Shown piece after piece: positions 9,255 to 61,947 of a stretch of DNA of 63,709 nucleotides. The DNA is from a virus (taxonomy: Duplodnaviria; Caudoviricetes), in the IMG/VR virus record IMGVR_UViG_3300048850_000155, positions 1-63,709 of that record; one strand, 5' to 3'. Under the pieces are notes generated by a model. It was given only the letters and a program-made list of their open reading frames with translations, made no database searches and was not told the origin of the DNA. Each line of letters starts with the position of its first letter. Position 1 is the first letter of the stretch. Position numbers and translations under genes: made by a program.

Positions 9255-9500
9255 ATGCAAAACGTGATTTCTGCCGATCGCGCCATCGACGAAGCGGACG
9301 GGAATATTCCGAGAGCTGGCGCCCGCCTCGGTGCCGTCGCGCGCTGGAACGAGCGCCGCGCCAATGCAATCGACAACTCATCGGCGAGCCGTCGGCGCCG
9401 CGGGTTGCCTGACATGGAAAGGCTTCGCCGCCAAGCCGAGGCCTTACACGCGGTTGCTGCCGAGCTCGCGGCCCCGCAAGAGATGAGGATGGCGGCGTGA
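9255..9500 (+). CDS. Phage hypothetical protein
   Basis: GAGG RBS; coupled. Confidence 0.5.
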   Translation: MQNVISADRAIDEADGNIPRAGARLGAVARWNERRANAIDNSSASRRRRGLPDMERLRRQAEALHAVAAELAAPQEMRMAA

Positions 9501-9904
9501 TGGCCTACAACTTGGAAGAAGCCACCAGGTACCTCGAAACCGGCGGGCTCGGCGAAGTTTACGGCCTCGCTGACATGTCGCGCCAGCTCGGCCAGGACAG
9601 GGTTCAGATCGACACCGATATGGCGGTGGCCCTATGTCGGCTCGCCGGCAAGGCGCTAGAAGGGCGGGGCAGCGGCGCACCCGCTGAAGTCGACGGCGTC
9701 ATAAAAAGAGGCACGCTGCTACTCATCGGTGGCGACACGCGCTGCCCCTATATCGCCGGCGAGATCTATGGCGACCGAAAGGGACGCTTCGTCGACGGTG
9801 AGCGGATCAAGACGAGCACGATCACCGCAATTCCCGACGGCGTTTACCGGACGCGTTACTCGACGTATCGGGTCGAGTTCGCAGAAAAGAAGGAGGCAGC
9901 GTGA
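9497..9904 (+). CDS. Phage hypothetical protein
   Basis: GEIYGDRKGRFVDGERIKTS...TRYSTY, a recurrent phage domain pattern. Confidence 0.55.
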   Translation: MMAYNLEEATRYLETGGLGEVYGLADMSRQLGQDRVQIDTDMAVALCRLAGKALEGRGSGAPAEVDGVIKRGTLLLIGGDTRCPYIAGEIYGDRKGRFVDGERIKTSTITAIPDGVYRTRYSTYRVEFAEKKEAA

Positions 9905-10208: not shown

Positions 10209-11030
10209 ATGGCGATTTCACTCGCAAATCTCAAGAGCACCAAATCAAACCGGCCGCCGATCCTCGTGCTGTACGGCGTGGACGGTGTCGGCAAGACCAG
10301 CCTGGCGGCCGAGTTCCCGGACCCGATCTACATCCAGACGCCGGGCGAGCGCCCACCGTCTGATGTCGACCTGCCGTCGTTTGGCGTCATCGAGTCCTTC
10401 AACGACATGCTCGACGCCATCGGTTCGTTGCTGACCGAGGATCACGGCTACCGGACGTTCATCATCGACAGCCTCGACGGGCTCGAGCCGTTCGTTCAGC
10501 GGGCGACCGCACAGCGGATCGGCGCCGACTCCATCGACTCCAACGAGAAGGGCTCGCCGGCATCCTACGGCCGGGGCTATTCGGAAGCCGACACCGAGTG
10601 GAACGAGTACCTGTCCGGGCTGGAGGAACTGACGCGGCAGGGCATCGCCGTCGTGCAGCTCGCGCACCCGGACATCACCCGGTTCGACTCGCCGATCAGC
10701 GACCCGTACAGCCGGTACAGCCTCAAGCTTCACAAGCGCGCCAACGCCCTCGTGCGTGAGAAGTCCGACATCGTCGCCTTCATGAATTACCGGGTGACGC
10801 TCAAGAGCGTCGAGGCCGGCTTCAACAAGAAGGTGACGCATGGTGAATCCGGCGGAGACCGCCAGGTTCACCTCGAAGAACGGGCCGGGTACGTGGCCAA
10901 GAACCGCTACAACGCGCCCGCAACGCTCCCGTACAAGAAAGGACAAGGCTACTCCGAACTCTCAAAATACTTCCCTGCACCGACTGGCATTGTAGCGCAT
11001 GACGCCGATGCCCGGGCAGACGCTGCGTAG
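10209..11030 (+). CDS. AAA_24/Sak4-like recombination ATPase
   Basis: YGVDGVGKTS Walker A, FIIDSLD Walker B, AKNRY. Confidence 0.85.
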   Translation: MAISLANLKSTKSNRPPILVLYGVDGVGKTSLAAEFPDPIYIQTPGERPPSDVDLPSFGVIESFNDMLDAIGSLLTEDHGYRTFIIDSLDGLEPFVQRATAQRIGADSIDSNEKGSPASYGRGYSEADTEWNEYLSGLEELTRQGIAVVQLAHPDITRFDSPISDPYSRYSLKLHKRANALVREKSDIVAFMNYRVTLKSVEAGFNKKVTHGESGGDRQVHLEERAGYVAKNRYNAPATLPYKKGQGYSELSKYFPAPTGIVAHDADARADAA

Positions 11031-11047: not shown

Positions 11048-11554
11048 ATGGCCTCTTTAGGTGGAAGCTACAATCCGGATGCGGAACCGTCGTCGGGCTC
11101 GTTTGAGCCGCTCCCGGCAGACGACTACACCCTCGAAATCGTCGAATCCGATTACACCGCCAATGCCAAGGGCAACGGCATGGTGCTCAAGCTGACGACG
11201 CAGGTCGTCGGCGGTGAGTATGACGGCCGCAAGCTGTTCATCAACCTGAACCTCGAGCACGAGAACGAGAAGGCGCAGGACATCGCGCAGCGCGAGTTCG
11301 CCGCCCTCCGTCGTGCCGTCGGCGTGCTCAACCCTGGCGACAGTGAGGAACTGCACTTTAAGGCATTCCAGGCCAAGGTCGGCGTCGAGAAGCGCAAGGA
11401 CAACGGCGAGCTCACCAACCGCGTGAAGCAGTACTACTTCGACGGCGACGCGCCGGCGCCTGCCGCGGCACCCGCCAACGACAACCGGCCCGCTGTTCAG
11501 GAACAGCGCGCCACTGGCACGGCGAATAAGCGGCCCTGGCCGACGAGGAAGTGA
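11048..11554 (+). CDS. DUF669 family (putative ssDNA-binding) protein
   Basis: FEPLPADDY...LKLTTQVVGGEYDGRKLF; follows the Sak4-like gene. Confidence 0.8.
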   Translation: MASLGGSYNPDAEPSSGSFEPLPADDYTLEIVESDYTANAKGNGMVLKLTTQVVGGEYDGRKLFINLNLEHENEKAQDIAQREFAALRRAVGVLNPGDSEELHFKAFQAKVGVEKRKDNGELTNRVKQYYFDGDAPAPAAAPANDNRPAVQEQRATGTANKRPWPTRK

Positions 11555-11761: not shown

Positions 11762-12847
11762 ATGCGCTTATCCATTCAGCGCGCTGAGCTCGCGCGCCTG
11801 CTGTCGGCTGTCGACCGTGTGGTCGAAGCACGAACCACCATCCCGATCCTCTCGAACGTGCTCCTGACGGCCACAGACGGCCGCCTCGAGGCGAGGGGCA
11901 CCAACCTGGATATCGAAGCCACCGCCTCGGGCGAAGCCGTTGTCGAGGTCCCTGGCGCCATCACGCTGCCTGCGAAGACGCTCAAGGAGATCGCAGGCAA
12001 GCTGCCCAAGGATGCAGTCGTCACTATCGCAGCAGAAGCAGGAGCGGCGACGATCAAGTCCAGTCGGTCGCGCTTCAAGCTCGCGACGCTGCCGGTTGAG
12101 GATTATCCAGACCTCGCCAACGGCAAGTTCGACGTCACGTTCCCTCTGACGGTTGCGCAGGTCAAGACGCTGTTCGGGCGCACGGCCTACGCCATGAGCA
12201 CCGAGTCGACCCGCTACTACCTCAATGGCGTCTATCTGCACGAAGTGGACGGCAACCTGACGGCTGTCGCGACGGACGGCCACCAGTTGGCACGCGCTTC
12301 TGTGCCCGCGCCGCTGCGTAGCATCCCGTCAGCAATCATCCCGACACAGATGGTGGCGGAAATTCAGCGACAGGTCGTTGACATCGAGGTGTCGCTGTCC
12401 TCGTCGAAAATCCGCATTGCCGCGGGCGATACGGTCATCACGTCCAAGCTGATCGACGGGACGTTCCCCGACTATCAGCGCGTCATCCCGACTGGCAATG
12501 ACAAGCGCGCCGTGCTCGACAAGGCAGAGTTCGGCGCCTCAGTCGAACGCGTCGCGACCGTCGCCTCGGATCGAAGCCGCGCCGTGAAGCTTTCCTTGGC
12601 CAGTGGCGCCGCCGTGCTTAGCGTCCGCGGCAGCGAGGGTGGGACCGCGGAGGACGAGCTCGCAATCGAATACGACAGCGAGCCCGTCGAGATCGGCTTC
12701 AACGGCACGTTCATCGGGAACACGTTGCGCGTGCTCGATGCCGAGACGGTCGAGGTGGCGATCGGTGACCCCAGCGCGCCCGCGCTGTTCTCCGGCCTGG
12801 GCGACGCATCGAGCCTCCACGTCATCATGCCCATGAGGGTGTCGTGA
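11762..12847 (+). CDS. dnaN: DNA polymerase III beta sliding clamp (phage copy)
   Basis: TTIPILSNVLL, TRYYLNGV, VATDGH, SKLIDGTFPDYQRVIP, VIMPMR. Confidence 0.95.
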   Translation: MRLSIQRAELARLLSAVDRVVEARTTIPILSNVLLTATDGRLEARGTNLDIEATASGEAVVEVPGAITLPAKTLKEIAGKLPKDAVVTIAAEAGAATIKSSRSRFKLATLPVEDYPDLANGKFDVTFPLTVAQVKTLFGRTAYAMSTESTRYYLNGVYLHEVDGNLTAVATDGHQLARASVPAPLRSIPSAIIPTQMVAEIQRQVVDIEVSLSSSKIRIAAGDTVITSKLIDGTFPDYQRVIPTGNDKRAVLDKAEFGASVERVATVASDRSRAVKLSLASGAAVLSVRGSEGGTAEDELAIEYDSEPVEIGFNGTFIGNTLRVLDAETVEVAIGDPSAPALFSGLGDASSLHVIMPMRVS

Positions 12848-13068
12848 TGTGGGCCGATGACGACATCGAAGAGCTCGAAGACGCCCTCAGTGACTTGGAG
12901 GACCGGCTGTCCCTCGTCGCAGATGGCCTTGCAGAGATCCGGCGCGGTCACTTCGATCACGGCGCGACGCTCATTGAGGCTGCGCTCTCATCCAGAACGC
13001 CAGACCCGCACCTCGAGCGCAAGAAATACGCCGAAGCCATGGCCGCCAAGGAGGCGTCACATGCCTGA
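12844..13068 (+). CDS. Phage hypothetical protein
   Basis: Coupled ORF. Confidence 0.45.
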   Translation: MMWADDDIEELEDALSDLEDRLSLVADGLAEIRRGHFDHGATLIEAALSSRTPDPHLERKKYAEAMAAKEASHA

Positions 13069-13567
13069 CCTGCTATTCGAAGTCACGCTGCTCGAAAAAG
13101 AGCTGCAAGATCTTCTCGCCGCCTATCCTGAGCTCGCCGAGGACGAGCAGCTTCGCGCCGACACGATCGAGGGTGAGACCGGAGCACAGGCCGTCCTCTC
13201 GCGCATCATGAGCCAGGCGCTCGACGCCGAGGCAATGGCCGCCGCGGTGCGGGTGCGGATCAACGCGCTGGAGTCGCGTCAGGCGGCCTCACAGCGGCGC
13301 AGGGAGGCCATGCGCAAGTTCGCGCAGCGTCTCATGCTCGCGGGCGGCCTCAAGTCTCTGCGGCTTCCGGAGGCCACCCTGTCGCTATCGAAGGGGCGCG
13401 ACAGCATCGACATCACGGACGAGGCCGCGCTGCCGAGCTGGGCGTGGGCCGTCGACGTGGTGCGCAAGCCATCCAAGACCGCGATCAAGGAAGCGATCGA
13501 CGCCGGCGTCGCCGTTCCGGGCGCGCAGGTGAAGACCGGCGAGCAAACACTGATGGTGCGGACGTGA
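13061..13567 (+). CDS. Siphovirus Gp157-family protein
   Basis: DTIEGET...KPSKTAIKEAIDAGVAVPGA. Confidence 0.85.
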   Translation: MPDLLFEVTLLEKELQDLLAAYPELAEDEQLRADTIEGETGAQAVLSRIMSQALDAEAMAAAVRVRINALESRQAASQRRREAMRKFAQRLMLAGGLKSLRLPEATLSLSKGRDSIDITDEAALPSWAWAVDVVRKPSKTAIKEAIDAGVAVPGAQVKTGEQTLMVRT

Positions 13568-13720
13568 CCCTTCAGGAACAAACAGAAGCGCTCGTTGCGC
13601 TCAACGTTTTCCCCACCGTCCCGACCGGCATCGACGGCCGGAAGGTTCTCCGCTGCCCCCGTCTCGACGAGACGGCCGAGGAATGGGGCGAAGAGTGTTT
13701 TGAGATTGCCGAGGGCGAAT

Positions 13721-13933
13721 ATGGCCACGATCAAAATTGAATGGCTGACCGATGATGCCGACTGCGAAACGTGCGGGACATCGTGGGCCGAAGGAGCGCG
13801 CGTCTTCGTCGATGGCTCTATTGCCGTCGATTTAGAGCCGACCGCGTATTGCTGCGGTGGAGCGCACTACGACGAACGCGAGGTCTTCACGCGCATTCTG
13901 GAGCACCTTGGCCACACCGTGGAGCACGCCTAG
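13721..13933 (+). CDS. Hypothetical protein with CxxC motif
   Basis: DCETCG...CC. Confidence 0.5.
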   Translation: MATIKIEWLTDDADCETCGTSWAEGARVFVDGSIAVDLEPTAYCCGGAHYDEREVFTRILEHLGHTVEHA

Positions 13934-13936
13934 CCA

Positions 13937-14926
13937 ATGCCGCCCCTCCCGCAACTCGCGACGATCGCGCCGACGATCGCGGCCATCTACAAGCATTACG
14001 AGCAACGTGAGCAGTGGGAGGGCCGCACCCTTTCGATCTCTACCCTGGCGGATTCCTGCGAGCGCAAGCTCTGGTACGACTTCCACTGGGTGTCGCCGCC
14101 GGAACAACTCACCGGCCAGAAGCTCCGCCTTTTCGCGACGGGCAACATCGAGGAGGACCGGTTCATTGAGGAGCTTCGCGCCATCGGGTGCGAGGTTCAG
14201 GACCGCGACCCGGCCACGGGGCGGCAGATCACAGTGACCGCCGTCGGCGGTCACGTGAAGGGCAAGCTCGACGCGGAAGTCTTGGGCCTGCCGGAGGCGC
14301 CTAAGACGATCCACGTGGCCGAGATGAAGAGCCACAACGACAAGTCGTTCCGCAAGCTGCTCAAAGATGGAGTCGCGAAGGCGAAGCCAGAGCATTTCGG
14401 GCAGTTTCAGATGTACATGCATCTGCGACATCGTGATCGAGCGATCTATCTCGCGGTCAACAAGAACACCGACGAGCTCTACGCCGAGCGCGTGCACTAC
14501 GACGCTGAGTATTGCCTCCGGCTGATCGCCAAGGCGGAGCGCATCGTACGCGCGGCCGAGCCGTTGCGCCGGCTGCATGACGACCCGGACTCCAAGTCCG
14601 CATTCGTCTGCGGCTGGTGCAAGCACAAGCCGCACTGCCACGAAAAGGCATGGCCGCGCGTGAGTTGCCGCACGTGCCTGTATTCGACGCCAGAAATTGT
14701 CGGCGAACGCGGCGTCTGGACTTGCGGCCGGTGGGACAAACCGCTGACGCACGAAGAGCAGCAAGCCGGGTGCCCCGCGCACCTGTTCATCCCGGCGCTG
14801 GTTCCCGGCGAGCAAATAGACGCCTCGGAAGCCGATGAATGGGTCGAGTACCGGCTCGCTGACGGCAGCTTGTGGCGGGATGGGGCGGCGAACGACGACA
14901 CGGAGGTCAACCGTGCTGCAGCTTAG
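13937..14926 (+). CDS. PD-(D/E)XK (Cas4/RecB-like) phage exonuclease
   Basis: CERKLWY, GKLD, EMKS, QFQMYM, CGWC...C. Confidence 0.85.
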   Translation: MPPLPQLATIAPTIAAIYKHYEQREQWEGRTLSISTLADSCERKLWYDFHWVSPPEQLTGQKLRLFATGNIEEDRFIEELRAIGCEVQDRDPATGRQITVTAVGGHVKGKLDAEVLGLPEAPKTIHVAEMKSHNDKSFRKLLKDGVAKAKPEHFGQFQMYMHLRHRDRAIYLAVNKNTDELYAERVHYDAEYCLRLIAKAERIVRAAEPLRRLHDDPDSKSAFVCGWCKHKPHCHEKAWPRVSCRTCLYSTPEIVGERGVWTCGRWDKPLTHEEQQAGCPAHLFIPALVPGEQIDASEADEWVEYRLADGSLWRDGAANDDTEVNRAAA

Positions 14927-14944
14927 ACCGACGAAGGGCGCGTA

Positions 14945-16603
14945 ATGGCACTGCGATACTACCAGCGCGAGGCGGTTGATTCCGTCTTTGAATACTGGCG
15001 CGAGGATCCTGGGCATCCGCTGGTTGTGGCGGCCACCGGAACCGGCAAGTCGATCATGCAGGCCACACTCACCACCGAGCTGCTCGATGGTTGGCCAGAC
15101 ATGCGCATCATGAACACGACGCATGTCGTGGAACTGGTGGAGGGTAATTATCTCGAACTGATCGGCCTGAACCAGTTCGCGCCCGCCGGAATATGGGCCT
15201 CATCGCTTGGGCGGAGGCAGCGCAGCGCACAGGTTCTGTTCTCGCAGCTGCAGACCGTGCACGACAAAGCCGACCAAATCGGCCATGTCGACGTGCTGCA
15301 AATCGACGAGGCGCATCTCGTGCCGTTTAGGCAGTCCACGATGTACCGCAGACTCATCGATGGGCTACTGCGCATCAACTCTGACATGAAGGTATCGGGG
15401 TTTACAGCCACCGATTACCGGCTGGACGGAGGACGGCTCACCGAGGGCGATGGGCGGCTGTTCGACAAGGTAGTCTATAACTACGGCATTCGGCTTGGCA
15501 TCGACGACGGGTACCTTACCCCAATCACGAGCAAGCCAGTCGGTACCCACTATGACCTGTCTGGCGTCCGACGGTCGATGGGGGAGTACAAGGCAAGCGA
15601 CTACCGGGCCGCTGTTGATACAGATGCCCTCAATGCCCGCATCGTCGAAGAGGTTTTGGATGTTGAGGGGCGCCGAAAAAAGGCTCTGATCTTCTGTCGT
15701 GGGGTTGAGCATTCAGCGCGCATGGCAGAAGCGTTTCGCCGCGCCGGCCGTGCTGTCGAGGTGGTGCATGGCGGGACAGAGTCCGGCGAACGTCGCAGGT
15801 TGATCCAGCGCCTGAAAGACGGCGACCTATGGGGGCTTGCGAACGACAACATATTGTCGACTGGCACGAACATTGTGGGAGTCGATTTGATCGTCGATTG
15901 CTATCGCACAATGTCGGCCGGGCGATACGTTCAGCGCGTCGGGCGCGGCACCCGCGTTATCTGGCCGCCGGGGTTTTACCCGGAGGCCGTCGACGCTTCC
16001 GCCCGTCGGGCAGCCATTGCCTCGTGGGTTAAGCCGAATTGTCGATACATGGACTTCGCCGGCAACATCGACGAGCACGGGCCGGTTGATATGGTCAGCC
16101 CAAAGAAGCCGGGCAACGGGCAGGGCGAGGCTCCCATCAAGGTTTGCCCAAACTGCCATGAGCTGTTGCACGCATCGGCTCGCGTATGCACGTGCTGCGG
16201 CCACGAATTCGAGTTTGACCAAACGCCTAAGGTCGCAGTGAAGCCAAGTTATTCACCGATCATCTCCACCGAATACGAGAATACATGGCTCCCCGTGACC
16301 GGCCGCCGCTTTGCCTATCACGATAAGCCCGGCGGCACGGACAGCGTGTGCGTCCACTTCGGCTGCGGGTTCGTCACGCACAGAATGTGGGTCTGCCCGG
16401 AGCACAAAGGCTACGCCAAGCAAAAGGCCGACCGCTTCTGGATGCAGCACGGCGGGACGGCGCCGGCGCCGAAGAGCGTGCAGGAGTGGCTCGACCGGGC
16501 CGGAGAGCTACGGCCGACCGCAGAAATCAGCGTCCGGCCGAACGGCCGGTATTTCGAAGTTGTCGGCGTGAGGGATGGCGAAGAGATGAAGGAGGCAGCG
16601 TGA
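14945..16603 (+). CDS. SF2 DEAH helicase (RadD/YejH-like) with Zn ribbon
   Basis: LRYYQ, ATGTGKS, DEAH, TAT, QRVGRGTR, CPNC...CTCC. Confidence 0.92.
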   Translation: MALRYYQREAVDSVFEYWREDPGHPLVVAATGTGKSIMQATLTTELLDGWPDMRIMNTTHVVELVEGNYLELIGLNQFAPAGIWASSLGRRQRSAQVLFSQLQTVHDKADQIGHVDVLQIDEAHLVPFRQSTMYRRLIDGLLRINSDMKVSGFTATDYRLDGGRLTEGDGRLFDKVVYNYGIRLGIDDGYLTPITSKPVGTHYDLSGVRRSMGEYKASDYRAAVDTDALNARIVEEVLDVEGRRKKALIFCRGVEHSARMAEAFRRAGRAVEVVHGGTESGERRRLIQRLKDGDLWGLANDNILSTGTNIVGVDLIVDCYRTMSAGRYVQRVGRGTRVIWPPGFYPEAVDASARRAAIASWVKPNCRYMDFAGNIDEHGPVDMVSPKKPGNGQGEAPIKVCPNCHELLHASARVCTCCGHEFEFDQTPKVAVKPSYSPIISTEYENTWLPVTGRRFAYHDKPGGTDSVCVHFGCGFVTHRMWVCPEHKGYAKQKADRFWMQHGGTAPAPKSVQEWLDRAGELRPTAEISVRPNGRYFEVVGVRDGEEMKEAA

Positions 16604-17967
16604 TGGTGGATTGGATGCGAGATGCTGAGCATGGTCTCTGGGGTGAGGCTGCGCCGGCGAAACGAGAGATGGTCGCGTCAAGAGTTTTTGTTGTGATGGG
16701 TAATGACTATCCAGACGCCGTGTTCACGACAGAACATGAGGCCAATAGACATTGCGAAATGACATCGCAATCCTTCCTCGACGGCCGAGTCACACTCCAC
16801 GGTGGCGATAGCCGCGATATACTGAAGAAGCTGCCGGACGCGAGCATCGACTCCGTCGTCACGGACCCGCCCTATGCGCTGGTCTCGATCGGCAAGCGCT
16901 TCGGCAAGGCGGGCTCGGCGCCAGCGCAGCATGGCAAAGATGGGCTTTATGCCCGCGCCTCGGCCGGCTTCATGGGGCAGCAATGGGACACCGGCGAGAC
17001 GGCCTTTGCCGAGGAGTTCTGGGCCGAGGTGCTGCGCGTGCTGAAGCCCGGCGGCCATGTCGTCGCGTTCAGCGGCACGCGCACCTATCACCGCATGGCC
17101 TGCGCGATCGAAGATGCCGGTTTCGAGATCCGCGATCAGCTGGCGTGGACATACGGCTCGGGGTTTCCGAAGTCGCATTCAATGCGCCAAATCGGGCGCC
17201 CTGAGCTTGGCACAGCGCTCAAGCCAGCATGGGAGCCCATCTGTCTCGCCCGCAAACCCTTGATCGGCACGGTCGCGGAAAATGTTCTGCATCACGGCAC
17301 CGGGGCGCTGAATATCGATGGGTGTCGGGTAGGGACGGAAGGCGGGACACGCAAGGAGGCGAGCGCCGACAAGAGCACGACCGACAGCGTCGGAGGCTAC
17401 CTCAACGCGAAGGCGGGCGCACCTATAGACGCCGGCCGCTGGCCCGCCAATATTGTCCACGACGGCAGCGACGAGGTGGTGGCGTGCTTCCCGGAGACGA
17501 GCAGCGGAACGTTCGCTGCCTCACATGCCGATTCCGGCAAGTCTGCCGGGATTCTCGGAGCGATGTCGGGGCGCAATCGCGACCGTGACTTCATCGGCTC
17601 GTCCGGCTCCGCCGCTCGCTATTTCTACAGCGCCAAGGCAGACGCCAACGACCGACTCGGCTCAAAACATCCGACCGTCAAGCCCGTCGACCTGATGCAG
17701 TGGCTTGTCCGCCTCATCACACCCAAGGGCGGACTCGTGCTCGATCCCTTCGCCGGCACCGGCACAACGGGTGAAGCCGCCTGGCGCGAGGGCATGCGCG
17801 CCGTGCTCATCGAGCGCGAGGCGCAGTATCAGGCCGATATCGCCAAGCGCATGGAGCTTGCCGTTGCCGGCACGGCAACGCGCAAGGGGGCCATCGCTAA
17901 GGCAAAGCCGCCAGGCGCACCGCTGCCGCTGTTCGCCAACGACAACGAAATCGCAAAGGCGGCCTGA
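16603..17967 (+). CDS. DNA amino-methyltransferase (beta class, DPPY)
   Basis: VVTDPPY, HPTVKP, LDPFAGTGTT; core may start at ATG 16759. Confidence 0.9.
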   Translation: MVDWMRDAEHGLWGEAAPAKREMVASRVFVVMGNDYPDAVFTTEHEANRHCEMTSQSFLDGRVTLHGGDSRDILKKLPDASIDSVVTDPPYALVSIGKRFGKAGSAPAQHGKDGLYARASAGFMGQQWDTGETAFAEEFWAEVLRVLKPGGHVVAFSGTRTYHRMACAIEDAGFEIRDQLAWTYGSGFPKSHSMRQIGRPELGTALKPAWEPICLARKPLIGTVAENVLHHGTGALNIDGCRVGTEGGTRKEASADKSTTDSVGGYLNAKAGAPIDAGRWPANIVHDGSDEVVACFPETSSGTFAASHADSGKSAGILGAMSGRNRDRDFIGSSGSAARYFYSAKADANDRLGSKHPTVKPVDLMQWLVRLITPKGGLVLDPFAGTGTTGEAAWREGMRAVLIEREAQYQADIAKRMELAVAGTATRKGAIAKAKPPGAPLPLFANDNEIAKAA

Positions 17968-18770
17968 TGGCAAAACTGACCAAAGCGCAGGCGAAGGCAC
18001 ACGCCCAAGCCGTAGAGCTGCTCGCCAAAGACACGCTAACCGAGGATGACAAGGAATTCGTGCTCCGAAATTGGAACGAGGGAGCGAACCATGTGAATGG
18101 CGAGGCCGGCGCTTTCTTTACGCCATTCGACATGGCTTTCGACTTCGCCATTGACGCCGGCGGCGGGCGCATCATTGACCTTTGCGCCGGCATCGGAATG
18201 CTGTCTTTCGCCGTATGGTGCAGGTCACGTTGGAACGAGCGGCGGGCGCGCATCACGTGCATCGAGCGCAACGCCGATTACGTTGCTGTTGGCAAAAAGA
18301 TCCTGCCAGAGGCGACCTGGATCCATGCAGACGCGCTTGATGTCCTGGATCTGGATTTGGGGCACTTCGATTCCGCCATCAGCAATCCGCCCTTCAGCAA
18401 CATTAAGCGGTCGCGGAACGCGCCACGCTATACGGGTCGCGATTTCGAATTCCATGTCATCGACATCGCGGCGCACCTTGCAGACTATGGAGCATTCATC
18501 GTTCCGCAGATGTCAGCTGGTTTCAACTATTCTGGGCGAAAAGTTTACGAGCGGCACGGGGAGGGAAGGGCAGTTCAGTTTCAGAAACTAACTGGGCTCC
18601 ACTTTGATACTGGATGCGGGGTCGACACGGCCTATTACATGGACCAGTGGAAAGGCGTGTCGCCGTTGTGTGAAATCGTCTGTGTTGATTTCGCCGAGGG
18701 GCGCGCGGCCGCCATACCGAAGCCCGCCAACGACAACGTTCCTGACCTTCCACTCTTCAGGGCAGCATGA
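17967..18770 (+). CDS. DNA N6-adenine methyltransferase (gamma-like, NPPF)
   Basis: GAFFTP, IDLCAGIG, ISNPPF. Confidence 0.85.
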   Translation: MAKLTKAQAKAHAQAVELLAKDTLTEDDKEFVLRNWNEGANHVNGEAGAFFTPFDMAFDFAIDAGGGRIIDLCAGIGMLSFAVWCRSRWNERRARITCIERNADYVAVGKKILPEATWIHADALDVLDLDLGHFDSAISNPPFSNIKRSRNAPRYTGRDFEFHVIDIAAHLADYGAFIVPQMSAGFNYSGRKVYERHGEGRAVQFQKLTGLHFDTGCGVDTAYYMDQWKGVSPLCEIVCVDFAEGRAAAIPKPANDNVPDLPLFRAA

Positions 18771-19075
18771 ACATCCGCGAGCCATTGCCTAACCGTAGGC
18801 AGCACGAAGTGATCGAATTCACGCATGACTTCCACCAGTACACCGCCGGCGTCGGGCGCTATCCCGATGGCCGGCTGGCGGAAGTCTTCTTGGACTCCGG
18901 CAAGACGGGGACGGGCATGCAGATCAACGCACGCGATGGAGCTATCGCGATCAGTCTCGGGCTTCAGTGGGGCGCGCCGGTGGACGCCATACGGGAGGCG
19001 CTGTCGAGGCGCGCCGACGGTGCGGCCGAGGGGCCACTGGGGGCACTGTTGGATTTGCTGGGGGAGGGGGAGTGA
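18767..19075 (+). CDS. TSCPD-like domain protein (resembles class II RNR C-terminus)
   Basis: REPLPNRR...GRYPDGRLAEVFL...AIAISLGLQWG. Confidence 0.7.
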   Translation: MNIREPLPNRRQHEVIEFTHDFHQYTAGVGRYPDGRLAEVFLDSGKTGTGMQINARDGAIAISLGLQWGAPVDAIREALSRRADGAAEGPLGALLDLLGEGE

Positions 19076-19413
19076 TGGCAGGCGCCCCTCCTATGGAAGA
19101 ACCTGCCGACTGCGTCGTCTGCCACCGCCGCGCCATCGGCCTCGGCATCGGCTCGCCGCAGTCGCCGCGATGGCTTTGCACGGAGTGCGCGTTGATCGCT
19201 GAAGACATCCGCGCCGCTCGCCGCCTGGATCCATTTGAGGTGGCGGCGCTCAATGACGCCTGCGCTGAGGGCGGGGGCTACTTGGACGACCTGGACCGCA
19301 CGGACCTGGTTACGCTCAGCGAGCACGAGTTCCGCGAATTCTGCCGGCGCGTGGTCCTGGGATTTGGTGCCTCCATCAGGAAGCAAATTCGTGAGCACAG
19401 AGCTCCATTTTGA
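19075..19413 (+). CDS. Cys-rich phage hypothetical protein (DUF6511-like)
   Basis: CVVC...CTEC; GGYLDDLDRTDL...APF. Confidence 0.55.
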   Translation: MAGAPPMEEPADCVVCHRRAIGLGIGSPQSPRWLCTECALIAEDIRAARRLDPFEVAALNDACAEGGGYLDDLDRTDLVTLSEHEFREFCRRVVLGFGASIRKQIREHRAPF

Positions 19414-19816
19414 ACACCGGATTGGCAAGCAGCACGTCCGCTGAAATATCCAGGCTGCCCGCCAATGCCCGCGCCTCGCCGACGGCGATGGGTCTCTGCT
19501 CGATCTCAAGCTGAAGAATAGTTGCCTTATCCAAGCCGGACGCAACCGCGAGATCCGAGATCGTCATCTGGCGGTAAGACCGCATCGCCTTCAACGGCGA
19601 TGACCCTGCCCAGATCGCATCGAGAACCTCGTCCGGTGTCCCTCGCGCGGCCTGTGCGCCTTCAAATTTGAAGAGAGTGTCATGCATCCTAGCCTCCCCA
19701 GCTTGCGCCCGGCCAGTGGCCAAAACCCGCAATCCAACATCGCCGGAAATCACGGCTATGCAGGTGCGGTACAGCACATGCTGTGTCCGGAGATCCCTTC
19801 TTGGTCCGGCGACCAT
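19376..19816 (-). CDS. XRE HTH protein, HigA-antitoxin-like
   Basis: PDEVLDAIWAGSSPLKAMRSYRQMTISDLAVASG...LAGSLDI; start uncertain. Confidence 0.6.
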   Translation of the reverse strand: MVAGPRRDLRTQHVLYRTCIAVISGDVGLRVLATGRAQAGEARMHDTLFKFEGAQAARGTPDEVLDAIWAGSSPLKAMRSYRQMTISDLAVASGLDKATILQLEIEQRPIAVGEARALAGSLDISADVLLANPVFKMELCAHEFAS

Positions 19817-19911
19817 CTACTCCTGGTAGCGATTGCACCCCAGTCGTCGATGAGGGCGAAGATCATCCGTCAGGCATCTGAGCTTGGGGACGAGCAGCGG
19901 GGGAGGGCGGA

Positions 19912-20898
19912 GTGAGCGTGCAGATTATCACCGGCGACTGCCGCGACGTTCTCCGCGCGCTGCCCGACGAGAGCGTGCATTGCGTGGTTACGAGCCCGCC
20001 GTATTTCGGCCTGCGTGATTACGGTGTCGCCGGTCAGATCGGCCTTGAGCCGACGCCGGACGAATTCGTGGCTGAGATGGTTGGCGTATTCCGTGACGTG
20101 CGGCGGGTCCTGAGGGATGACGGCACGCTGTGGCTGAACCTGGGCGACAGTTATGCAAGCGATCCCCGGAAGGGACGCGTGACTGCGACGCAGTCGGGGA
20201 AGGCGGCCTATCTTGCGGGACAGGCGAACCAGTGCCGCTTTATTGGCGGCAGCCTAAAGCCCAAGGACTTGATCGGCATTCCGTGGCGCGTCGCCTTCGC
20301 CCTGCAGGCGGACGGCTGGTATCTGCGCAGCGACATCGTTTGGCACAAGCCGAACCCGATGCCGGAGAGCGTCACCGACCGACCCACGAGCGCACATGAG
20401 CATGTCTTCCTGCTCGCGAAGTCTGAGCGGTATTTCTACGATGCCGAGGCGGTGCGTGAGAGGGCGGTGTCCGACGACGATAAGAAGTGGACCGACGGCG
20501 GTTCAGAAAAGCAACGTGGGCACGGTAGGCGGCACGCTGGCTTCAACGGGCGATACGCTGAGCGCATCGCTATCGATGGCGCTCCGACGCACCGCAACCT
20601 CCGCAACGTCTGGACGATCGCAACAAGACCGTTTCCCGAAGCCCATTTCGCAACCTTTCCCCCTGACCTAGCGGAGCGCTGCATCGAGGCTGGCTGTCCA
20701 GCCGGCGGCACCATACTTGATCCATTCGGCGGCGCCGGCACCACCGGCCTCGTCGCCGACCGCCTCGGCCGCAACGCCATTCTGATCGAGCTCAATCCCG
20801 AATATGCGGATATGGCCCGGCGCCGGATCAAGGGCGACGCGCCGCTGTTCGCTCAAGTTTCCGCGAACGACAACTACGCAGCCAAGGCAGCCGCATGA
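19912..20898 (+). CDS. DNA methyltransferase (beta class, SPPY; likely N4-C)
   Basis: VTSPPY, HFATFP, LDPFGGAGTT. Confidence 0.92.
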   Translation: MSVQIITGDCRDVLRALPDESVHCVVTSPPYFGLRDYGVAGQIGLEPTPDEFVAEMVGVFRDVRRVLRDDGTLWLNLGDSYASDPRKGRVTATQSGKAAYLAGQANQCRFIGGSLKPKDLIGIPWRVAFALQADGWYLRSDIVWHKPNPMPESVTDRPTSAHEHVFLLAKSERYFYDAEAVRERAVSDDDKKWTDGGSEKQRGHGRRHAGFNGRYAERIAIDGAPTHRNLRNVWTIATRPFPEAHFATFPPDLAERCIEAGCPAGGTILDPFGGAGTTGLVADRLGRNAILIELNPEYADMARRRIKGDAPLFAQVSANDNYAAKAAA

Positions 20899-23210
20899 CC
20901 CCCCTCGTCTCCACCCCCGCCCAGCCTTCCCCCTACAACCTCGTCGGCTCGACGCTCGTCGACCAAGGCTTTTCGGCCATACCCTGCCGGCCCGGATCCA
21001 AGCGCCCGGGCTCGTACAGCTTCGGGCAGTGGTATGGCCGGAATGACTGGCAGCAATACTGCAACCGCGCCCCGACCGACTTTGAAACTCGGGCGTGGGA
21101 GAAGTGGCCAGACGCCGGCGTGTGCGTTGCGCTCGGCTTTGCAGGCGTCGTCGCCGTCGACGTCGACACGGATGACCCGGCGCTTTGCGCGGCACTCGCG
21201 GCCGTCATCCCCGAATCCCCGATCATGAAGCGCGGCCAGAAGGGCTTTACGGCCTTCTACCGCGGCGGCCCGGAAATCAAGGCGGCGGCCTTCAACGTCA
21301 ACAACGAACGCGTCGTCGATCTCCTGGCGCACGGCAAGCAGACCGTCGTGCCGCCCACGGTCCACCCCGACACCGGTCAGCCGTACCAGTGGATCGGCGA
21401 CGCGCTCGAGACGGTGTCGCCCGACGCGCTGCCCGAACTGCCCCCAGACATCGCCGAGCGCATTGCGGAGGCGCTCGAGCCGTTCGGATATGCCCCGACA
21501 CAAACCCCTCGCGCCCAGGGCGACGGCTACGGCCACAGCATCTGGCGTGACCTGAACGCACGCGCCCTCCAGGACCTCGACGCCTGGGTGCCCGCGCTCG
21601 ACCTGCCCAAGCTCAAGCGCACGTCGCGCGGCTATGTCGCCGTGCCGTTCTGGCGTCCGTCCAATCGCGGTCGCCCGACGCACCAGCGCAACCCGAACCT
21701 CAAGATCACCACGTCGGGCATCAAAGACTTCCACGACGGCGATCGCGGCTATACGCCTCTCGATCTCGTCATGGCGGCTCTCGGCTGCGGCCTGGACTTC
21801 GCCGACCAGTGGCTGCGTGAGCGGCTCGGGTTTCAGGAGCCGGACCTCTACGGCCTGGAGCCCTGGTTTCCCAAAACGGCGCCACTGCCCGACGCGCCAC
21901 AACCTGCCACACCGGCCCCCGTCGCCGCGCCTCGTGGGACCGTCAATCCGTTCACGGCAGCCTCGGCTGGCGGGCTGCTGCACGTCATCCACGATTGGGT
22001 GATTGCCAATGGTCGCCGCCCGGTGCCGGAGTTCGCGACCATGGCCGCTGTGACGTTCCTGGCGGGGCTGTATGGCCGTCGCTGCGTCGGGCCTACCGGC
22101 GCCGGCCTCAACGTCTACTTCGTTGGGCTGGGCTCCTCTGCCCACGGAAAGGGCCTCCCGCTGAAGGCGCTCAAGACGCTCGCCGTCGACTGCGGTTTGC
22201 AGCGCATGGTCATTGCCGGCGACTTCACCGCAGACTCGGCGATCGAGCGGGCGCTTCGCCGCGACCCGTCGCTCGTCGTGGCCTGGGATGAGTTCGGGCT
22301 CGTGCTCCAAGGCGTGAACGGCCGCAACGCGTCCTCCTGGACGCGCACGGTTCGCCGCGCGCTCCTGGAGGTCTACAGCCTGTCAACGGACATGTGGTCG
22401 GGCAAGCAGTATGCAGACCCCAAGCGAGACGACCCGGAGCCGGTCTATTGCCCCACGCTGTCCATCCTGGGCATGACCACGCCGAGCACGTTCTACGACG
22501 GCCTGGCCGACGGCAACCTGTCAGACGGTTTCCTCAACCGCATGACGGTGATCCACGCCACCGAGACGCCGGAGCGCCGCAGGGCACCGCCGGTGATGGT
22601 GACACCGCCCTCGCTGCAGGCGGCAATTAAGGCCGCCGCCAATCAGCAGTTCGGCACCGGCAACCTTGGTGGCGCGCGCATGGCCAATGCTCGTCCACCC
22701 ATGCACGTCGTGCCATGGGAGAGCCCAGCAGTCGAGGCGCGCTGGCTCGAGATCGAGGATTGGCAGATAGCCGAGATCGAAGAGCGCGGCGGCGTCGAGG
22801 GCATCATCGGGCGAACGGCCGAGCAGACGATCAAGCTCGCCACGATCCGGGCACTGTCACGCGACGGCGTCACCGCCAAAGTCACGCAGGACGATATCGA
22901 ATGGGGCTATGCCATCGTGCAGCGCTCGCTCGACTGCCTCGACCGCGGTGTGCGTGACCACATGGCGTCGTCAGACTTCGAGTCGCTCTGCAAGGCCATC
23001 CTGGCGGCCCTGCACAAGAGCAAGGACGGCAGCATGCCCATGTCGCACCTTCTGCGCGTCAAGGGCATCTCCAAGGCCGAGGACCGGCATGTCAACGCCG
23101 CCGTCGACCGGCTCGTGCGGGTGGGTGAGGTCATGCGCACCAGGGGCACGCGCGGGGGCGCCGGCGGGCTCCGTCTAACCAACGCAATGGAGGCCGCTGA
23201 GGCTGCTTGA
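20895..23210 (+). CDS. Bifunctional primase-polymerase fused to DUF3987-like helicase
   Basis: VAVDVD, VVPPTVHPDTGQPYQW; GSSAHGK, WDEFG, GFLNR. Confidence 0.88.
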   Translation: MTPLVSTPAQPSPYNLVGSTLVDQGFSAIPCRPGSKRPGSYSFGQWYGRNDWQQYCNRAPTDFETRAWEKWPDAGVCVALGFAGVVAVDVDTDDPALCAALAAVIPESPIMKRGQKGFTAFYRGGPEIKAAAFNVNNERVVDLLAHGKQTVVPPTVHPDTGQPYQWIGDALETVSPDALPELPPDIAERIAEALEPFGYAPTQTPRAQGDGYGHSIWRDLNARALQDLDAWVPALDLPKLKRTSRGYVAVPFWRPSNRGRPTHQRNPNLKITTSGIKDFHDGDRGYTPLDLVMAALGCGLDFADQWLRERLGFQEPDLYGLEPWFPKTAPLPDAPQPATPAPVAAPRGTVNPFTAASAGGLLHVIHDWVIANGRRPVPEFATMAAVTFLAGLYGRRCVGPTGAGLNVYFVGLGSSAHGKGLPLKALKTLAVDCGLQRMVIAGDFTADSAIERALRRDPSLVVAWDEFGLVLQGVNGRNASSWTRTVRRALLEVYSLSTDMWSGKQYADPKRDDPEPVYCPTLSILGMTTPSTFYDGLADGNLSDGFLNRMTVIHATETPERRRAPPVMVTPPSLQAAIKAAANQQFGTGNLGGARMANARPPMHVVPWESPAVEARWLEIEDWQIAEIEERGGVEGIIGRTAEQTIKLATIRALSRDGVTAKVTQDDIEWGYAIVQRSLDCLDRGVRDHMASSDFESLCKAILAALHKSKDGSMPMSHLLRVKGISKAEDRHVNAAVDRLVRVGEVMRTRGTRGGAGGLRLTNAMEAAEAA

Positions 23211-57777: not shown

Positions 57778-57910
57778 GTTAAGAGGCCTCGCTTTCCTAG
57801 CGGGAGAGCCTTCTCAATTCCGCGGTGTCGGGCGTCGCTGCTTGGACCCTTCTCGGGCAGCGCGAAGAAGTACAACGCGATATTTGTCAGGAATGAGGAG
57901 GGAGGGAAAG

Positions 57911-59782
57911 TTGACGACAAGCATAGAAGGACAGGCTTGGTCCCTTAAGGTTGACATCACATTACTGGGGGGATCCGCGGCTGACTGCGTTATCGAGATT
58001 CGGCCCGGTATCACCACGCTGGTTGGGCCGAATGGAAGCGGAAAGACCCGTGCCCTACGTTCGATTAAGACTGCACTGGAAAGCCGCATCGGATCCTTGG
58101 GGCGCAAGACCCATTTCCTCGCAGCTGGACGCAGCAGTCCATTCGAAGTTTATCGGGCCGCAGTCAACGCTCCGAACATGCGTCAATCAGAAGACGCGGC
58201 CGTTGGTCACATCAACTATCGGAAACAATGGTGGCAGATTGAAAGTGTCACCGGCGGGCTACTGGTACTCGACAGCCGCGCGGACCTACGCCTCAAAATA
58301 GAGGCACGTCTCCAACAGCTGTTCGACCGGAGTGTGCACCTCTCCTGGTCGCAAGAAGGGCTACAGGTCCGAATCTCGCCGACGTCCGGGGGCGCTCCCT
58401 ACGCTGCCAATCACGAAGCCAGCGGTATCCTTCAGCTCGTGGCGCTACTCGCTGCCATTCACAACGACGACATTGGCGCCTTGCTGATCGACGAGCCCGA
58501 GATCTCGTTGCATCCGCAGCACCAAGCATTCGTTCTGGAGGAGATGGAAAAGGTTGCAGGTAACCCGACGGAGCCTGGGCGAAAGCTCATCGTGATTGCT
58601 ACCCATTCAGCATCAATCCTGCCGCTGCGGAGGATAGACGAACTACCGACTATTGTTTTCTTCAACTCCGTGCGTCAGGCGCCGGCACAAGTTCCCAGCG
58701 ACGCCGACATCCTCCAGCGAGTCAAGCTGGCAGCGTTGGTGGCCCGGCTCAGCACTACTCACCGCCTCGCCATGTTCGCCGAGCGCGTGCTGCTGGTCGA
58801 GGGACCGAGCGATGAAATCATCGCGACGCAGCTTGCTCGTCGCTTAGACCTTCGGCTGCTTGCTCGCAACGCACAGATCCTGCCGATCACAGGTAAGGGT
58901 GAATTTGGGGAAACCGCGAAATTGTTGCGCCTGATGAACAAGCAGGTTGCGGTGCTCGCTGATCTCGATGCGCTGGCCGATGACAATAGCCTCGTCGGGC
59001 AATTCAGCGAAATGCCGGAAGCTGCGGCAGTTGCCGAACAACTCGGAAGGACGAAACTCATCGATCTTGACGGTGATCTGCGCACGGCTTTGAACAGGTT
59101 CATGACCAAACACGAAGCGGAAGTTGAGGCGGCCGCCGCAGGTTATCCCGTTTGGTCGAGCAAAGAATCCAGCCCATTGTCCAAGCTTCGCGTGACGCTA
59201 GCGCGCGTGCTTACCGATCCGGCGAGCTTTGGCGTTGCGGCGTCCAGCGATGCGACCAGCTTATGCACCCGATATAAAGCGCTGTTGAATGCCCTCGCTA
59301 AAATCGGATGCTTCTTTTTGAGCCGCGGCGCGATTGAGAATTATTACCAAACCACTGCGGGAGATCGCGGTAAGCCGGGCGCTGCAGCGGATGAAGCAGC
59401 CGGGTTCGATCATAGAGCACCCGGGGAGCTGAAACAGAGTTACGCGGACGTTCTCAATGCACTCTCGTATACCGCGCCGAACCAGCGTGTCGATGAGGAT
59501 TTGCTGCTGCGCCCTAAGCTAGGCGCAGTTTTGACAGCGGCATTCCTCAGCATGAGCCCAGGCAGCACGGACGACCAACTAAACAGCGTCGCCAAGTCTA
59601 CGATCGGCGCGGATGCCGAAGTCTTTAACTTATCCAATCGGTCGTCGGAAGAGGACCTGCGCATCGAAGTCGAGATGGCTTCGCCGTTATTCCCGCGCGC
59701 CACATTCCCCTTCGAGGTTGGCCGGGATGACAATCTGAATAGCGTCATTCCAACCAAACTGCCCGGCATTGGCAAAACATAG
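57911..59782 (+). CDS. OLD-like ATP-dependent nuclease (ABC ATPase + TOPRIM)
   Basis: GPNGSGKT, IDEPEISLHP, ATHS, LVEGPSD, DLD. Confidence 0.85.
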   Translation: MTTSIEGQAWSLKVDITLLGGSAADCVIEIRPGITTLVGPNGSGKTRALRSIKTALESRIGSLGRKTHFLAAGRSSPFEVYRAAVNAPNMRQSEDAAVGHINYRKQWWQIESVTGGLLVLDSRADLRLKIEARLQQLFDRSVHLSWSQEGLQVRISPTSGGAPYAANHEASGILQLVALLAAIHNDDIGALLIDEPEISLHPQHQAFVLEEMEKVAGNPTEPGRKLIVIATHSASILPLRRIDELPTIVFFNSVRQAPAQVPSDADILQRVKLAALVARLSTTHRLAMFAERVLLVEGPSDEIIATQLARRLDLRLLARNAQILPITGKGEFGETAKLLRLMNKQVAVLADLDALADDNSLVGQFSEMPEAAAVAEQLGRTKLIDLDGDLRTALNRFMTKHEAEVEAAAAGYPVWSSKESSPLSKLRVTLARVLTDPASFGVAASSDATSLCTRYKALLNALAKIGCFFLSRGAIENYYQTTAGDRGKPGAAADEAAGFDHRAPGELKQSYADVLNALSYTAPNQRVDEDLLLRPKLGAVLTAAFLSMSPGSTDDQLNSVAKSTIGADAEVFNLSNRSSEEDLRIEVEMASPLFPRATFPFEVGRDDNLNSVIPTKLPGIGKT

Positions 59783-61197: not shown

Positions 61198-61947
61198 TCA
61201 AAAGAGGCTCAGCACCTGCGGGGGCTCGGCAGGCTCGCCACCATCCTGCTTCACACCCCGCGCCACGATCTGCAGGGCGCCATCCGGCAACGGCCGTTGG
61301 AGCGCCTTCGCCTCATCCCATGACGCCCGCATCCAGACCTCGCGCTCTTCCTCGGTCGTCAAAATGACGGGCATCGCCTTGGGATGAATCGGCGCCACAT
61401 CTGCATTCGGCTCGGTCGTGAGGAAACCGTAAAGATCGCATGTAACCTCGCCCTCTTTGACCTTCCGGACGCAGGTCCAATTGGTCCAGAGGCCGGCGAA
61501 GAAGGCGAGGGGGCGCCTCTCGTCGAGCGCGAACCAGATATCACCGCCGGCAGCGCTGTTGAACTCGCTGAATGACGTGAAGGGCACGAGGCAGCGGTTG
61601 CCCGGACCGAGCCAGCGCCGCCAATGTTGGCTGCTCACGTTGCGGATATTCGTTGTGCCTTTGTCGGGTTCCTTCTTGAGCAGTTCCTTGAAGTCGACGG
61701 TCTGCCCTTTGGCCTCGAGCTTCTGCGCTCGCCTTTGCGCCGCCTCCATCAGCGCCCTCTGAGACGAGGGCATGCCCCATCGCGCCGTCGTTAGTTCCCA
61801 GCCGTCTGGCCCGTTCCGCACGATCGGCGCGAGATAATCGGGATGGATGCCCGGGTACGATGGCAGGTTGCCGGTGCGGTCCACCATGGCGCGCGTCAGC
61901 TGCAGGATGCCCTGCTGGTTGCTCGTCATGCTGTAGAGGTTGCACAC
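61198..61947 (-). CDS. SOS response-associated peptidase (SRAP/YedK)
   Basis: MCNLY (Cys2), [22 protein letters not shown]. Confidence 0.92.

Follow-up and report, generated by a model that had tools for sequence, protein, structure and literature searches.

The replication module and its methyltransferases

The stretch of DNA analysed here, referred to below as the window, is the complete 63,709-base provirus record IMGVR_UViG_3300048850_000155 of IMG/VR, from a rhizobia-type host. It is a Hyphomicrobiales prophage: its named homologues lead to Mesorhizobium, Nitratireductor, Aquamicrobium, Limoniibacter, Rhizobium and Brucella/Ochrobactrum. A replication module occupies 10.2-23.2 kb, with every gene on the plus strand (Table 1); it includes a gene for a sliding clamp (DnaN) and three genes for DNA methyltransferases (MTases), here called MT1, MT2 and MT3. 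Each MTase closes with a short tail in which a Pro-Leu-Phe motif lies beside or inside a sequence resembling the SsrA tag added by transfer-messenger RNA (tmRNA). An initial annotation of the window had picked out these tails, as APLPLF, PDLPLF and GDAPLF beside ANDN…AA, and all of these letters are as it gave them. It proposed that the motifs bind the clamp and that the adjacent ends are degrons, and extended the first idea to a SRAP-domain protein encoded elsewhere in the prophage.

All three MTases carry a Pfam MTase domain (PF01555 or PF05175) together with a catalytic (D/S/N)PP(Y/F) motif, the kind of motif from which base specificity is assigned. MT1 (PF01555, E 4.4e-29; PHROG 67, DNA methyltransferase) has DPPY and is an N6_N4, or beta-class, enzyme; its start is uncertain, the database version of 423 amino acids beginning 31 codons further downstream. 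MT3 (PF01555, E 2.9e-48; PHROG 67) has SPPY and is likewise N6_N4, beta-class. MT2 is of the gamma class (NPPF): PF05175 is matched at 26.5 bits with a cut-off of 23, PHROG 3820 (‘DNA methyltransferase’) at E 8.4e-103, and N140-P141-P142-F143 is invariant in 70 sequences. The two Pfam families represent unrelated fold classes. MT1 ends in ...PPGAPLPLFANDNEIAKAA (also written ...GAPLPLFANDNEIAKAA), MT2 in ...PKPANDNVPDLPLFRAA (also written ...PANDNVPDLPLFRAA) and MT3 in ...IKGDAPLFAQVSANDNYAAKAAA (also written ...GDAPLFAQVSANDNYAAKAAA). Every one of these tails contains ANDN and ends AA-COOH; in MT2 the Leu-Phe lies between the two, the clamp-type motif being nested within the SsrA-like tag.

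Conservation of the tail motif

Of the 81 open reading frames (ORFs) of a crude gene list for the window, 10 have [LM]F among their last 20 residues. The ten include the three MTases, the SRAP protein and DnaN, where the motif sits in the folded part; at this frequency the window alone is suggestive and no more. Homologues decide the matter. Among the best 120 database relatives of each MTase, which head far larger sets (for MT1 and MT3, scoring covered only the 8000 candidates sharing most words), [LM]F stands in the last 40 amino acids of 113 MT1, 101 MT2 and 91 MT3 homologues. The conservation of PLF among homologues, on which the initial annotation had made its proposal depend, is thus borne out for the three MTase families.

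Control families were drawn from the other proteins of the module, as orthologues at 72 related loci (51 viral contigs and 21 genome contigs), with distinct C-termini counted only. These loci were fetched with MT2, because a scan of viral sequences based on DnaN returned only 4. The last 40 amino acids hold [LM]F in none of the AAA_24 (0/28), DUF669 (0/27), helicase (0/40) and DUF6511 (0/31) tails, in 2 of 35 for DnaN, in single cases for the Cas4-like nuclease (1/33) and the VRR-NUC-like protein (1/34), and in one of five prim-pol tails. A motif frequent in the MTase families and rare in the controls is a property of the MTases and not of phage composition; nor is it due to chance. In all three families it is conserved among orthologues while the flanks vary.

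The yardstick for these tails is the clamp-binding motif Q-phi-x-[LM](x)[FL]. In the main text of a 2024 clamp review (PMC11139829) its bearers include Pol II (QLGLF), Pol IV (QLVLGL), Pol III alpha (QADMF), Hda and MutS/MutL; the Gln is described there as important for affinity and not essential, and its replacement by Asn as mild. In the MT2 family, where 118 of the 120 homologues could be anchored, [LM]F is present in 99 and Qxx[LM]F in 79, around the consensus ANDN-x(2-8)-Q-[LA]-[DSN]-L-F-G-x-A-A-COOH. The full canonical pattern occurs in 57 of the 120 database homologues and in 41 of the 57 distinct tails from related loci; one canonical tail reads …NDNSPQLSLFGDAA. Distant MT2 homologues (57-67% identity) lack ANDN, and some lack the terminal AA; they end in QLDLFGRAA, QLSLFGDAA, EQLALL-COOH or EQLAFF-COOH. 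Y-family polymerases are textbook clamp clients, and those of host genomes end in ...EGQLALL-COOH (Aquamicrobium soli) and ...QPQLNLNF-COOH (Brucella pituitosa). The EQLALL tails of MT2 relatives thus coincide, in letters and in position, with a host Pol IV-type end.

The other two families keep a shorter core. All 120 MT1 relatives could be anchored and 119 have LF in the tail, with the consensus D-[AL]-[GL]-P-L-F-[GA]; ANDN-LPLF, frequent among them, can be read as N-L-P-L-F. Of 116 anchored MT3 relatives, 87 carry R-R-I-x-G-D-A-[GP]-[LM]-F-A-E-V and 29 are without the motif. [quoted passage not shown] The same architecture exists in culture: the Rhizobium phage RHph_TM3_3_14B, whose host is R. 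etli, shares the module, dnaN included; one of its MTases ends in ...AANDNSPQLSLFGDAA, a QLSLF tail, and a second has QGDMF plus ASLFAANDN...EAA.

One way to understand these tails, and the way we favour at slightly better than an even chance, is as clamp-binding peptides joined to, or nested in, an SsrA mimic, an arrangement that would tie methylation to replication and leave the free enzyme short-lived. As judged from sequence, the interpretation given in the initial annotation is borne out in part: the case for a clamp-type peptide is strong in the MT2 family and moderate in MT1 and MT3.

The phage clamp and the host clamp

The initial annotation's full-length dnaN is confirmed. The gene encodes 361 amino acids; PF00712, PF02767 and PF02768 (E 7e-34, 4.4e-25 and 8e-24 for the Pfam domains) together span residues 1-359. 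Among solved structures its best relatives are beta clamps (E 1.2e-86, aligned over residues 1-360), and PHROG 947, processivity factor, is hit at E 5.9e-89. Identity is 45-47% to DnaN from five host chromosomes and 40-52% to other phage DnaNs, so that the protein is about equally remote from both.

Certain stretches, which we take to correspond to the peptide pocket of the E. coli clamp, are invariant or nearly so across 35 phage clamps and identical in the five host clamps: R151-Y-Y-L154, T171-D-G-H-(R)-L176, P236-D-Y-x-R-V-I-P243, N314/Y317 and M356-P-M-R359. Strictly invariant in the phage clamps, and the same in the host clamps, are T171-D172-G173-H174-L176, P236-D237-R240-I242-P243 and M356-P357-R359. 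On the evidence of these alignments the cleft is under selection, and since its stretches are common to phage and host clamps, an MTase peptide could fit either.

The distribution of dnaN bears on which clamp is meant. Among loci whose upstream flank measures 9 kb or more, dnaN lies in that flank at 41 of the 50 with an LF-tailed MT2; the remaining nine have the tail and no dnaN there. Six further loci were scored as tail-less by regular expression and none of them has dnaN, although four of the six actually end QLA[LF][LF]; distant homologues without a phage dnaN still end QLALL or QLDLF. The co-occurrence of phage dnaN with PLF-tailed MTases that had been suggested as a check is thus usual and not obligatory. 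The motif is thus independent of a phage clamp; the common denominator is the clamp of the host.

Other readings of the motif

Several observations weigh against clamp binding. The Gln is absent from all three MTase motifs of the window, which do not match the published pattern, and that pattern appears in none of the 120 MT1 homologues and in only 3 of the 120 MT3 homologues; the likeness to clamp-binding motifs claimed at the outset therefore stands for the MT2 family and falls short, at the Gln, in the window's own three enzymes. PLPLF, DLPLF and DAPLF nevertheless retain positions 2, 4 and 5 of the clamp motif. The window's DnaN itself deviates at two near-invariant cleft positions, with Q175 (R in 34 of 35 phage clamps) and F317 (Y in 34 of 35), where all five host clamps have Arg and Tyr. 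In at least 75% of homologues the MT3 motif is found at exactly 13 residues beyond the anchor; a conserved A-E-V follows it, and the closest solved relative of MT3, 2zie, aligns P-G-F at the place of the motif.

These last points suggest a second perspective, in which [LM]F is a structural part of the enzyme, a C-terminal strand or cap packing on the catalytic domain, and not a docking peptide. Besides the fixed spacing and the extended MT3 consensus D-A-[GP]-[LM]-F-A-E-V, it can draw on the AlphaFold2 model of MT3, where the tail has a predicted local distance difference test (pLDDT) value of 70-75 and a short strand at 315-318, and on MT1, where LF keeps to a narrow range of 30-38 residues after the anchor. 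Given its fixed place after the last helix and this model confidence, the MT3 motif may indeed be partly structural. As a general account the idea fares less well. Enzymes of two unrelated folds, PF01555 and PF05175, share the motif; in MT2 its distance from the end of the domain varies over 13-45 residues, and the tail that carries it (residues 250-267) is modelled as coil at pLDDT 53-54, that is, as predicted disorder; up to 97 more residues follow LF in MT1 relatives; and 29 of the 116 anchored MT3 relatives do without it. MT3 relatives with insertions of 10-30 residues in the linker keep LF further out, as AGPLFG, PDLFG, VSLFAA or QARLF-COOH. We regard a purely structural role as unlikely.

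A third possibility is that the peptide docks on a partner other than the clamp, either another phage replication protein or a host hub. The MT1 and MT3 variants D-A-G-P-L-F and D-A-[GP]-[LM]-F miss the canonical clamp motif, and the same phages use other hub-type tails: xPF-COOH ends 33 of 40 distinct tails of helicase orthologues and 31 of 31 of DUF6511, mostly as EAPF. Prediction of the complex gives such a partner some room. Modelling the peptides in the DnaN pocket, proposed with the original idea, was carried out for the MT3 tail (residues 296-328) with two copies of the phage DnaN, all as alignments, and returned ‘weak support’, with a score of 0.51 against 0.20 for the best control. 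At least 76% of contacts agree between runs, the partner reaches pLDDT of at least 51 and the two DnaN copies 91, with no interface reported between the copies. Of 80 solved complexes, 58 attained this mark, as did 2 of 110 mismatched pairs; at scores up to 0.60, only 7 of the 80 did so, together with both mismatches. A value of 0.51 thus lies in a band that the tool describes as wrong in most cases, except for guesses that were already likely, and this too counts on the negative side. Clamp-peptide complexes have been solved many times (PDB), so the pass may reflect memory, and we read the model as a small positive only.

No evidence points to any particular alternative partner. The MT2 family is canonical, x-L-P-L-F of the window's MT1 and MT2 agrees with QLxLF at four of five positions, and N-L-P-L-F is frequent in MT1 relatives, with Asn for Gln being the substitution that the review calls mild (PMC11139829). 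Docking elsewhere than on the clamp seems quite unlikely.

The SsrA-like ends

The other half of each tail invites comparison with the host tag. No tRNA, tmRNA or alpha-tmRNA was found in the window, which is provirus only; host features were read from genomes carrying related prophages. The tmRNA tags of five such genomes are ANDNYAEARLAA (three genomes), ANDNKAQGYALAA and ANDNNAKEYALAA, and all begin ANDN. The MTase tails share the ANDN start and the AA-COOH end, and the MT3 tail ANDNYAAKAAA has the first six and the last two residues of ANDNYAEARLAA. They differ in being gene-encoded and not added by tmRNA, and in ending KAA, RAA or AAA and not LAA; ANDN also occurs internally in phage proteins. 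In the account of PMC3985003, ClpX and ClpA read a C-terminal ALAA and SspB binds the tag, with alphaproteobacteria included only as a ‘perhaps’. That the MTase tails mimic SsrA is a good reading of these sequences, plausible but confounded.

The degron half of the favoured reading has its own counterweights. The MTase AA is preceded by K, R or A, the AA of the host-type LAA by L. ND[ND] occurs in the last 30 amino acids of 37 of 40 helicase and 28 of 29 DUF669 tails, and neither family ends AA; the VRR-NUC-like orthologues have it in 16 of 34. AA-COOH closes 10 of the 21 genes listed between 7.8 and 23.2 kb, and is therefore not specific to MTases; among AAA_24 orthologues 25 of 29 end this way. 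Of the AA-ending MT2 genes, 48 of 49 overlap the next start (GC-ATG-A), with GCA as last codon in 45 of 49, and K-E-A-A spells AAGGAGGC, the ribosome-binding site of the coupled next gene. The AA endings are in this way confounded by overlapping start codons and by the ribosome-binding site downstream. The complete combination of ANDN, LF and AA, moreover, is present in 65 of 118 MT2 relatives, 8 of 120 MT1 relatives and 2 of 116 MT3 relatives. The degron placed next to the motif in the initial annotation thus survives as a close copy of host tags, weakened by how widespread ANDN and AA are and by the start overlaps.

Taken to its limit, the confounding becomes an explanation: the tail ends might be a by-product of nucleotide constraints (ribosome-binding site and ATGA overlap) combined with an alanine-rich composition. 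The helicase gene and the gene at 9497-9904 end in AAG GAG GCA GCG TGA TG, ribosome-binding site and overlapping start together, and many MT1 relatives end ...AAE, with GCG GAG before the stop. Such constraints would account for no more than the final two to four residues. Proteins whose next gene lies 17-20 nt away (AAA_24 and the Cas4-like nuclease) likewise close with AA or AAA, the penultimate Ala varies synonymously among GCA, GCC and GCG, and any NNA codon would suit the overlap. Translational coupling is a real confounder of the last residues; as the whole cause it was rejected, as it fails to explain LF, Gln and ANDN. We consider it very improbable that the tails are nothing else.

A further alternative keeps the tag and drops the clamp: the whole tail would be a proteolysis tag derived from host SsrA, with LF serving recognition by SspB, ClpA or ClpX as the host Tyr does. 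Host tags combine ANDN and LAA with an aromatic residue four to six positions before the end, and MT2 tails are of about the same length; the widespread AA endings of the module fit as well. Against this, LF and Gln persist where ANDN or AA is gone (EQLALL-COOH, QLDLFGRAA) and then match the host Pol IV-type end; Gln stands at -3 in 79 of the 99 LF-bearing MT2 tails, and host tags need none; and in MT1 and MT3 the LF is family-wide while ANDN is rare (33 of 120 and 6 of 116). A tag without a clamp partner is, in our judgement, decidedly unlikely. The ANDN+LF+AA tail is found mainly in the dnaN-bearing phage group. With the full tag lineage-specific and LF family-wide, the clamp-type motif is the old element and the SsrA-like dress an addition.

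Similar sequences recur around the module. (A)ANDN appears in tails or linkers of many module proteins, in the window at 11477, 17938, 18729, 20866 and 24348, and also at related loci. The nucleotide pattern AAYGAYAAY, considered in case ANDN reflects a signal in the DNA, has seven copies on the plus strand and one on the minus strand; the plus-strand copies examined are in frame as NDN, and given the local codon bias these counts fit selection on the DNA as well as on the protein. The Cas4-type nuclease has an SsrA-like end, ...GAANDDTEVNRAAA, with no overlapping start (TAG, the next ATG 18 nt later). Neither an SspB-like protein nor another adaptor family was found among ten small ORFs of the module. 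In the genome holding locus L060 a second, weaker alpha-tmRNA match (L083) of 70 bits has the unusual predicted tag AGHQFPRERIEIRTDAGNLVPQHALP; it may be a mobile-element or degenerate copy.

Proposed docking and destruction, and known systems

If the tails are clamp-binding peptides with an SsrA mimic, they would dock the MTases on sliding clamps left behind the fork, and nascent phage DNA would be methylated as it is replicated, by enzymes of three specificities (DPPY, NPPF, SPPY). The clamp used would certainly be the host's in relatives without a phage dnaN, and probably also the phage's own where one is present. In the MTase tails the clamp motif would be joined to (MT1, MT3) or nested in (MT2) a mimic whose ANDN would form the SspB-binding end and whose AA-COOH the ClpX-binding end; the SsrA-like ends would probably make free MTases short-lived through SspB/ClpXP. 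Binding, degradation, their order and an anti-restriction purpose are all matters that we infer, the sequence ‘dock, then destroy’ purely so.

Clamp clients in general offer the closest likeness. In the MT2 family a short motif lies in a C-terminal tail predicted to be disordered, with letters nearly identical to those of host Y-family tails. Use of the host clamp by a phage protein has a precedent, the MuC transcription factor of phage Mu, which needs the host clamp through such a motif (PMC12867686; bioRxiv 10.1101/2025.01.04.631326). The present candidates differ in being DNA methyltransferases known from sequence, in lacking the Gln in the window's motifs, and in belonging to a phage that brings its own clamp. 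The words ‘methyltransferase’ and ‘methylase’ are absent from the main text of the 2024 review (PMC11139829), and a literature search, supplementary files not covered, found no paper on a clamp-binding bacterial or phage DNA methyltransferase. Among eukaryotes, DNMT1 is bound to PCNA by a PCNA-interacting peptide (PIP) box, a clamp-tethered MTase that methylates newly replicated DNA (PMC9690074). That system differs in clamp family, motif and enzymes, and the likely purpose in the phage would be protection of its DNA and not epigenetic inheritance.

A second eukaryotic parallel joins the two halves of the tail. PIP degrons (Cdt1, p21 and Set8, with CRL4-Cdt2) combine a clamp-docking peptide and a destruction signal in one tail (PMC3973308). 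Their destruction needs docking on DNA-loaded PCNA, whereas the MTase tails have separate elements, one like a clamp-binding motif and one SsrA-like. One might still see the tails as a bacterial counterpart in which clamp occupancy gates access by SspB/ClpXP: the MTases would be active and stable only on clamps at phage DNA in replication, free enzyme would be cleared, methylation of the host genome would be limited, and activity would be confined to the replication window. The same perspective would distribute three host-hub peptides over the module: the clamp motif on the MTases, an xPF-COOH end resembling the tip of single-stranded DNA-binding protein (SSB) on the helicase and DUF6511, and ANDN as an SspB site in linkers. 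As a whole, this extension by analogy is doubtful.

Should the tails bind the clamp, DNA methyltransferases would form a new class of beta-clamp client, and replication-coupled methylation, known until now from eukaryotes (DNMT1-PCNA), would gain a phage and bacterial version. It would also explain how fast-replicating genomes of temperate phages are protected from restriction. Combined with an SsrA mimic, such a peptide would be a compact, gene-encoded tie between the lifetime of an enzyme and the replisome. For annotation the lesson is that the short C-terminal tails of phage methyltransferases carry information. RHph_TM3_3_14B provides a cultured system in which the reading of the tails can be tested directly.

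The SRAP protein and other terminal peptides

The SRAP protein cited in support of clamp binding, a member of the abasic-site sensor family, ends in ...PPQVLSLF, as the initial annotation had it, although its gene is not within the replication stretch to which that annotation was assigned (11762-20898): it lies 40 kb away, in the integrase-proximal accessory region. It is flanked there by an OLD-family nuclease (AAA_21/AAA_15 plus an OLD-like TOPRIM) and a tyrosine integrase. QVLSLF departs from the canonical pattern by a Ser at position 4 and resembles the Q-x-x-S-L-F form of the delta subunit. The eukaryotic SRAP protein HMCES carries a PIP box, and here too the SRAP domain (as in YedK) is followed by a flexible tail with a clamp-type ending. 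The difference is that in bacteria the motif is sporadic. Among 150 SRAP representatives, 63 have a recognisable complete C-terminus, and of these 3 end Q-x(2,3)-[LM][FL] and a further 6 have [LM][FL] near the end; one more, ...AQGSLF, was missed by the anchor. In Hyphomicrobiales, SRAP accounts for 26 rows (24 distinct) in 19 of 121 genomes, and 3 of the 26 end QGSLL, QASLF or QMSLL; the motif is missing from the two closest relatives, at 80% and 76% identity. Conservation, the test that the initial annotation had named, holds for the MTases and thus fails for SRAP, with about one homologue in ten bearing the motif. We regard the SRAP motif as a recurrent but sporadic addition, and the SRAP part of the reading as weak on these comparisons. 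The words clamp, PCNA and PIP are absent from the founding SRAP paper.

Table 1. Positions in the 63,709-base window of the genes and tail elements discussed
Feature	Position	Strand	Remarks
ORF of 84 amino acids	7832-8086	+	no Pfam/PHROG match
AAA_24 ATPase	10209-11030	+	
DUF669	11048-11554	+	
DnaN	11762-12847	+	three DnaN Pfam domains
Gp157-like	13073-13567	+	
Cas4-type nuclease	13937-14926	+	
SF2 helicase	14945-16603	+	
MT1	16603-17967	+	PF01555
MT1 tail motif APLPLF (x-L-P-L-F)	17917..17934	+	codon table
MT1 SsrA-tag-like end ANDNEIAKAA	17935..17964	+	codon table
MT2	17967-18770	+	PF05175
MT2 composite tail ANDN-VP-DLPLF-RAA	18726..18767	+	codon table; clamp-type motif PDLPLF at 18741-18758
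DUF6511	19072-19413	+	
MT3	19912-20898	+	PF01555
MT3 motif GDAPLF	20833..20850	+	codon table
MT3 SsrA-tag-like end ANDNYAAKAAA	20863..20895	+	codon table
prim-pol/DUF3987	20895-23210	+	
ORF of 131 amino acids	26207-26602	+	directly upstream of large terminase
OLD-family nuclease	57842-59782	+	
SRAP protein ending ...PPQVLSLF	61198..61947 (QVLSLF 61201-61218)	-	PF02586, E 8.1e-18; unique pattern match
Tyrosine integrase	62633-63709	-	

Other proteins of these phages have terminal peptides of a different kind. Helicases of related phages (L012, L025, L036 and others) end in the SSB-tip-like ...DDD[IV]PF-COOH, usually after two ANDN repeats; the helicase of the window has no xPF and ends ...EEMKEAA. 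Its DUF6511 protein ends ...REHRAPF, and in this second family, too, a terminal Pro-Phe is conserved. The SSB tip (D-D-D-I-P-F-COOH) was considered as a model for D-D-x-G-P-L-F of MT1 and rejected: MT1 has the order P-L-F where the tip has [IL]-P-F, and its motif stops short of the carboxyl end. The ORF of 84 amino acids has an acidic tail, ...DEDDDGPEPDEIDGNVIPFRAAA, in which an SSB-tip-like IPF is followed by RAAA. The ORF next to the large terminase has an acidic end as well, ...DGDKDPDDELFNR, with LF near its end.

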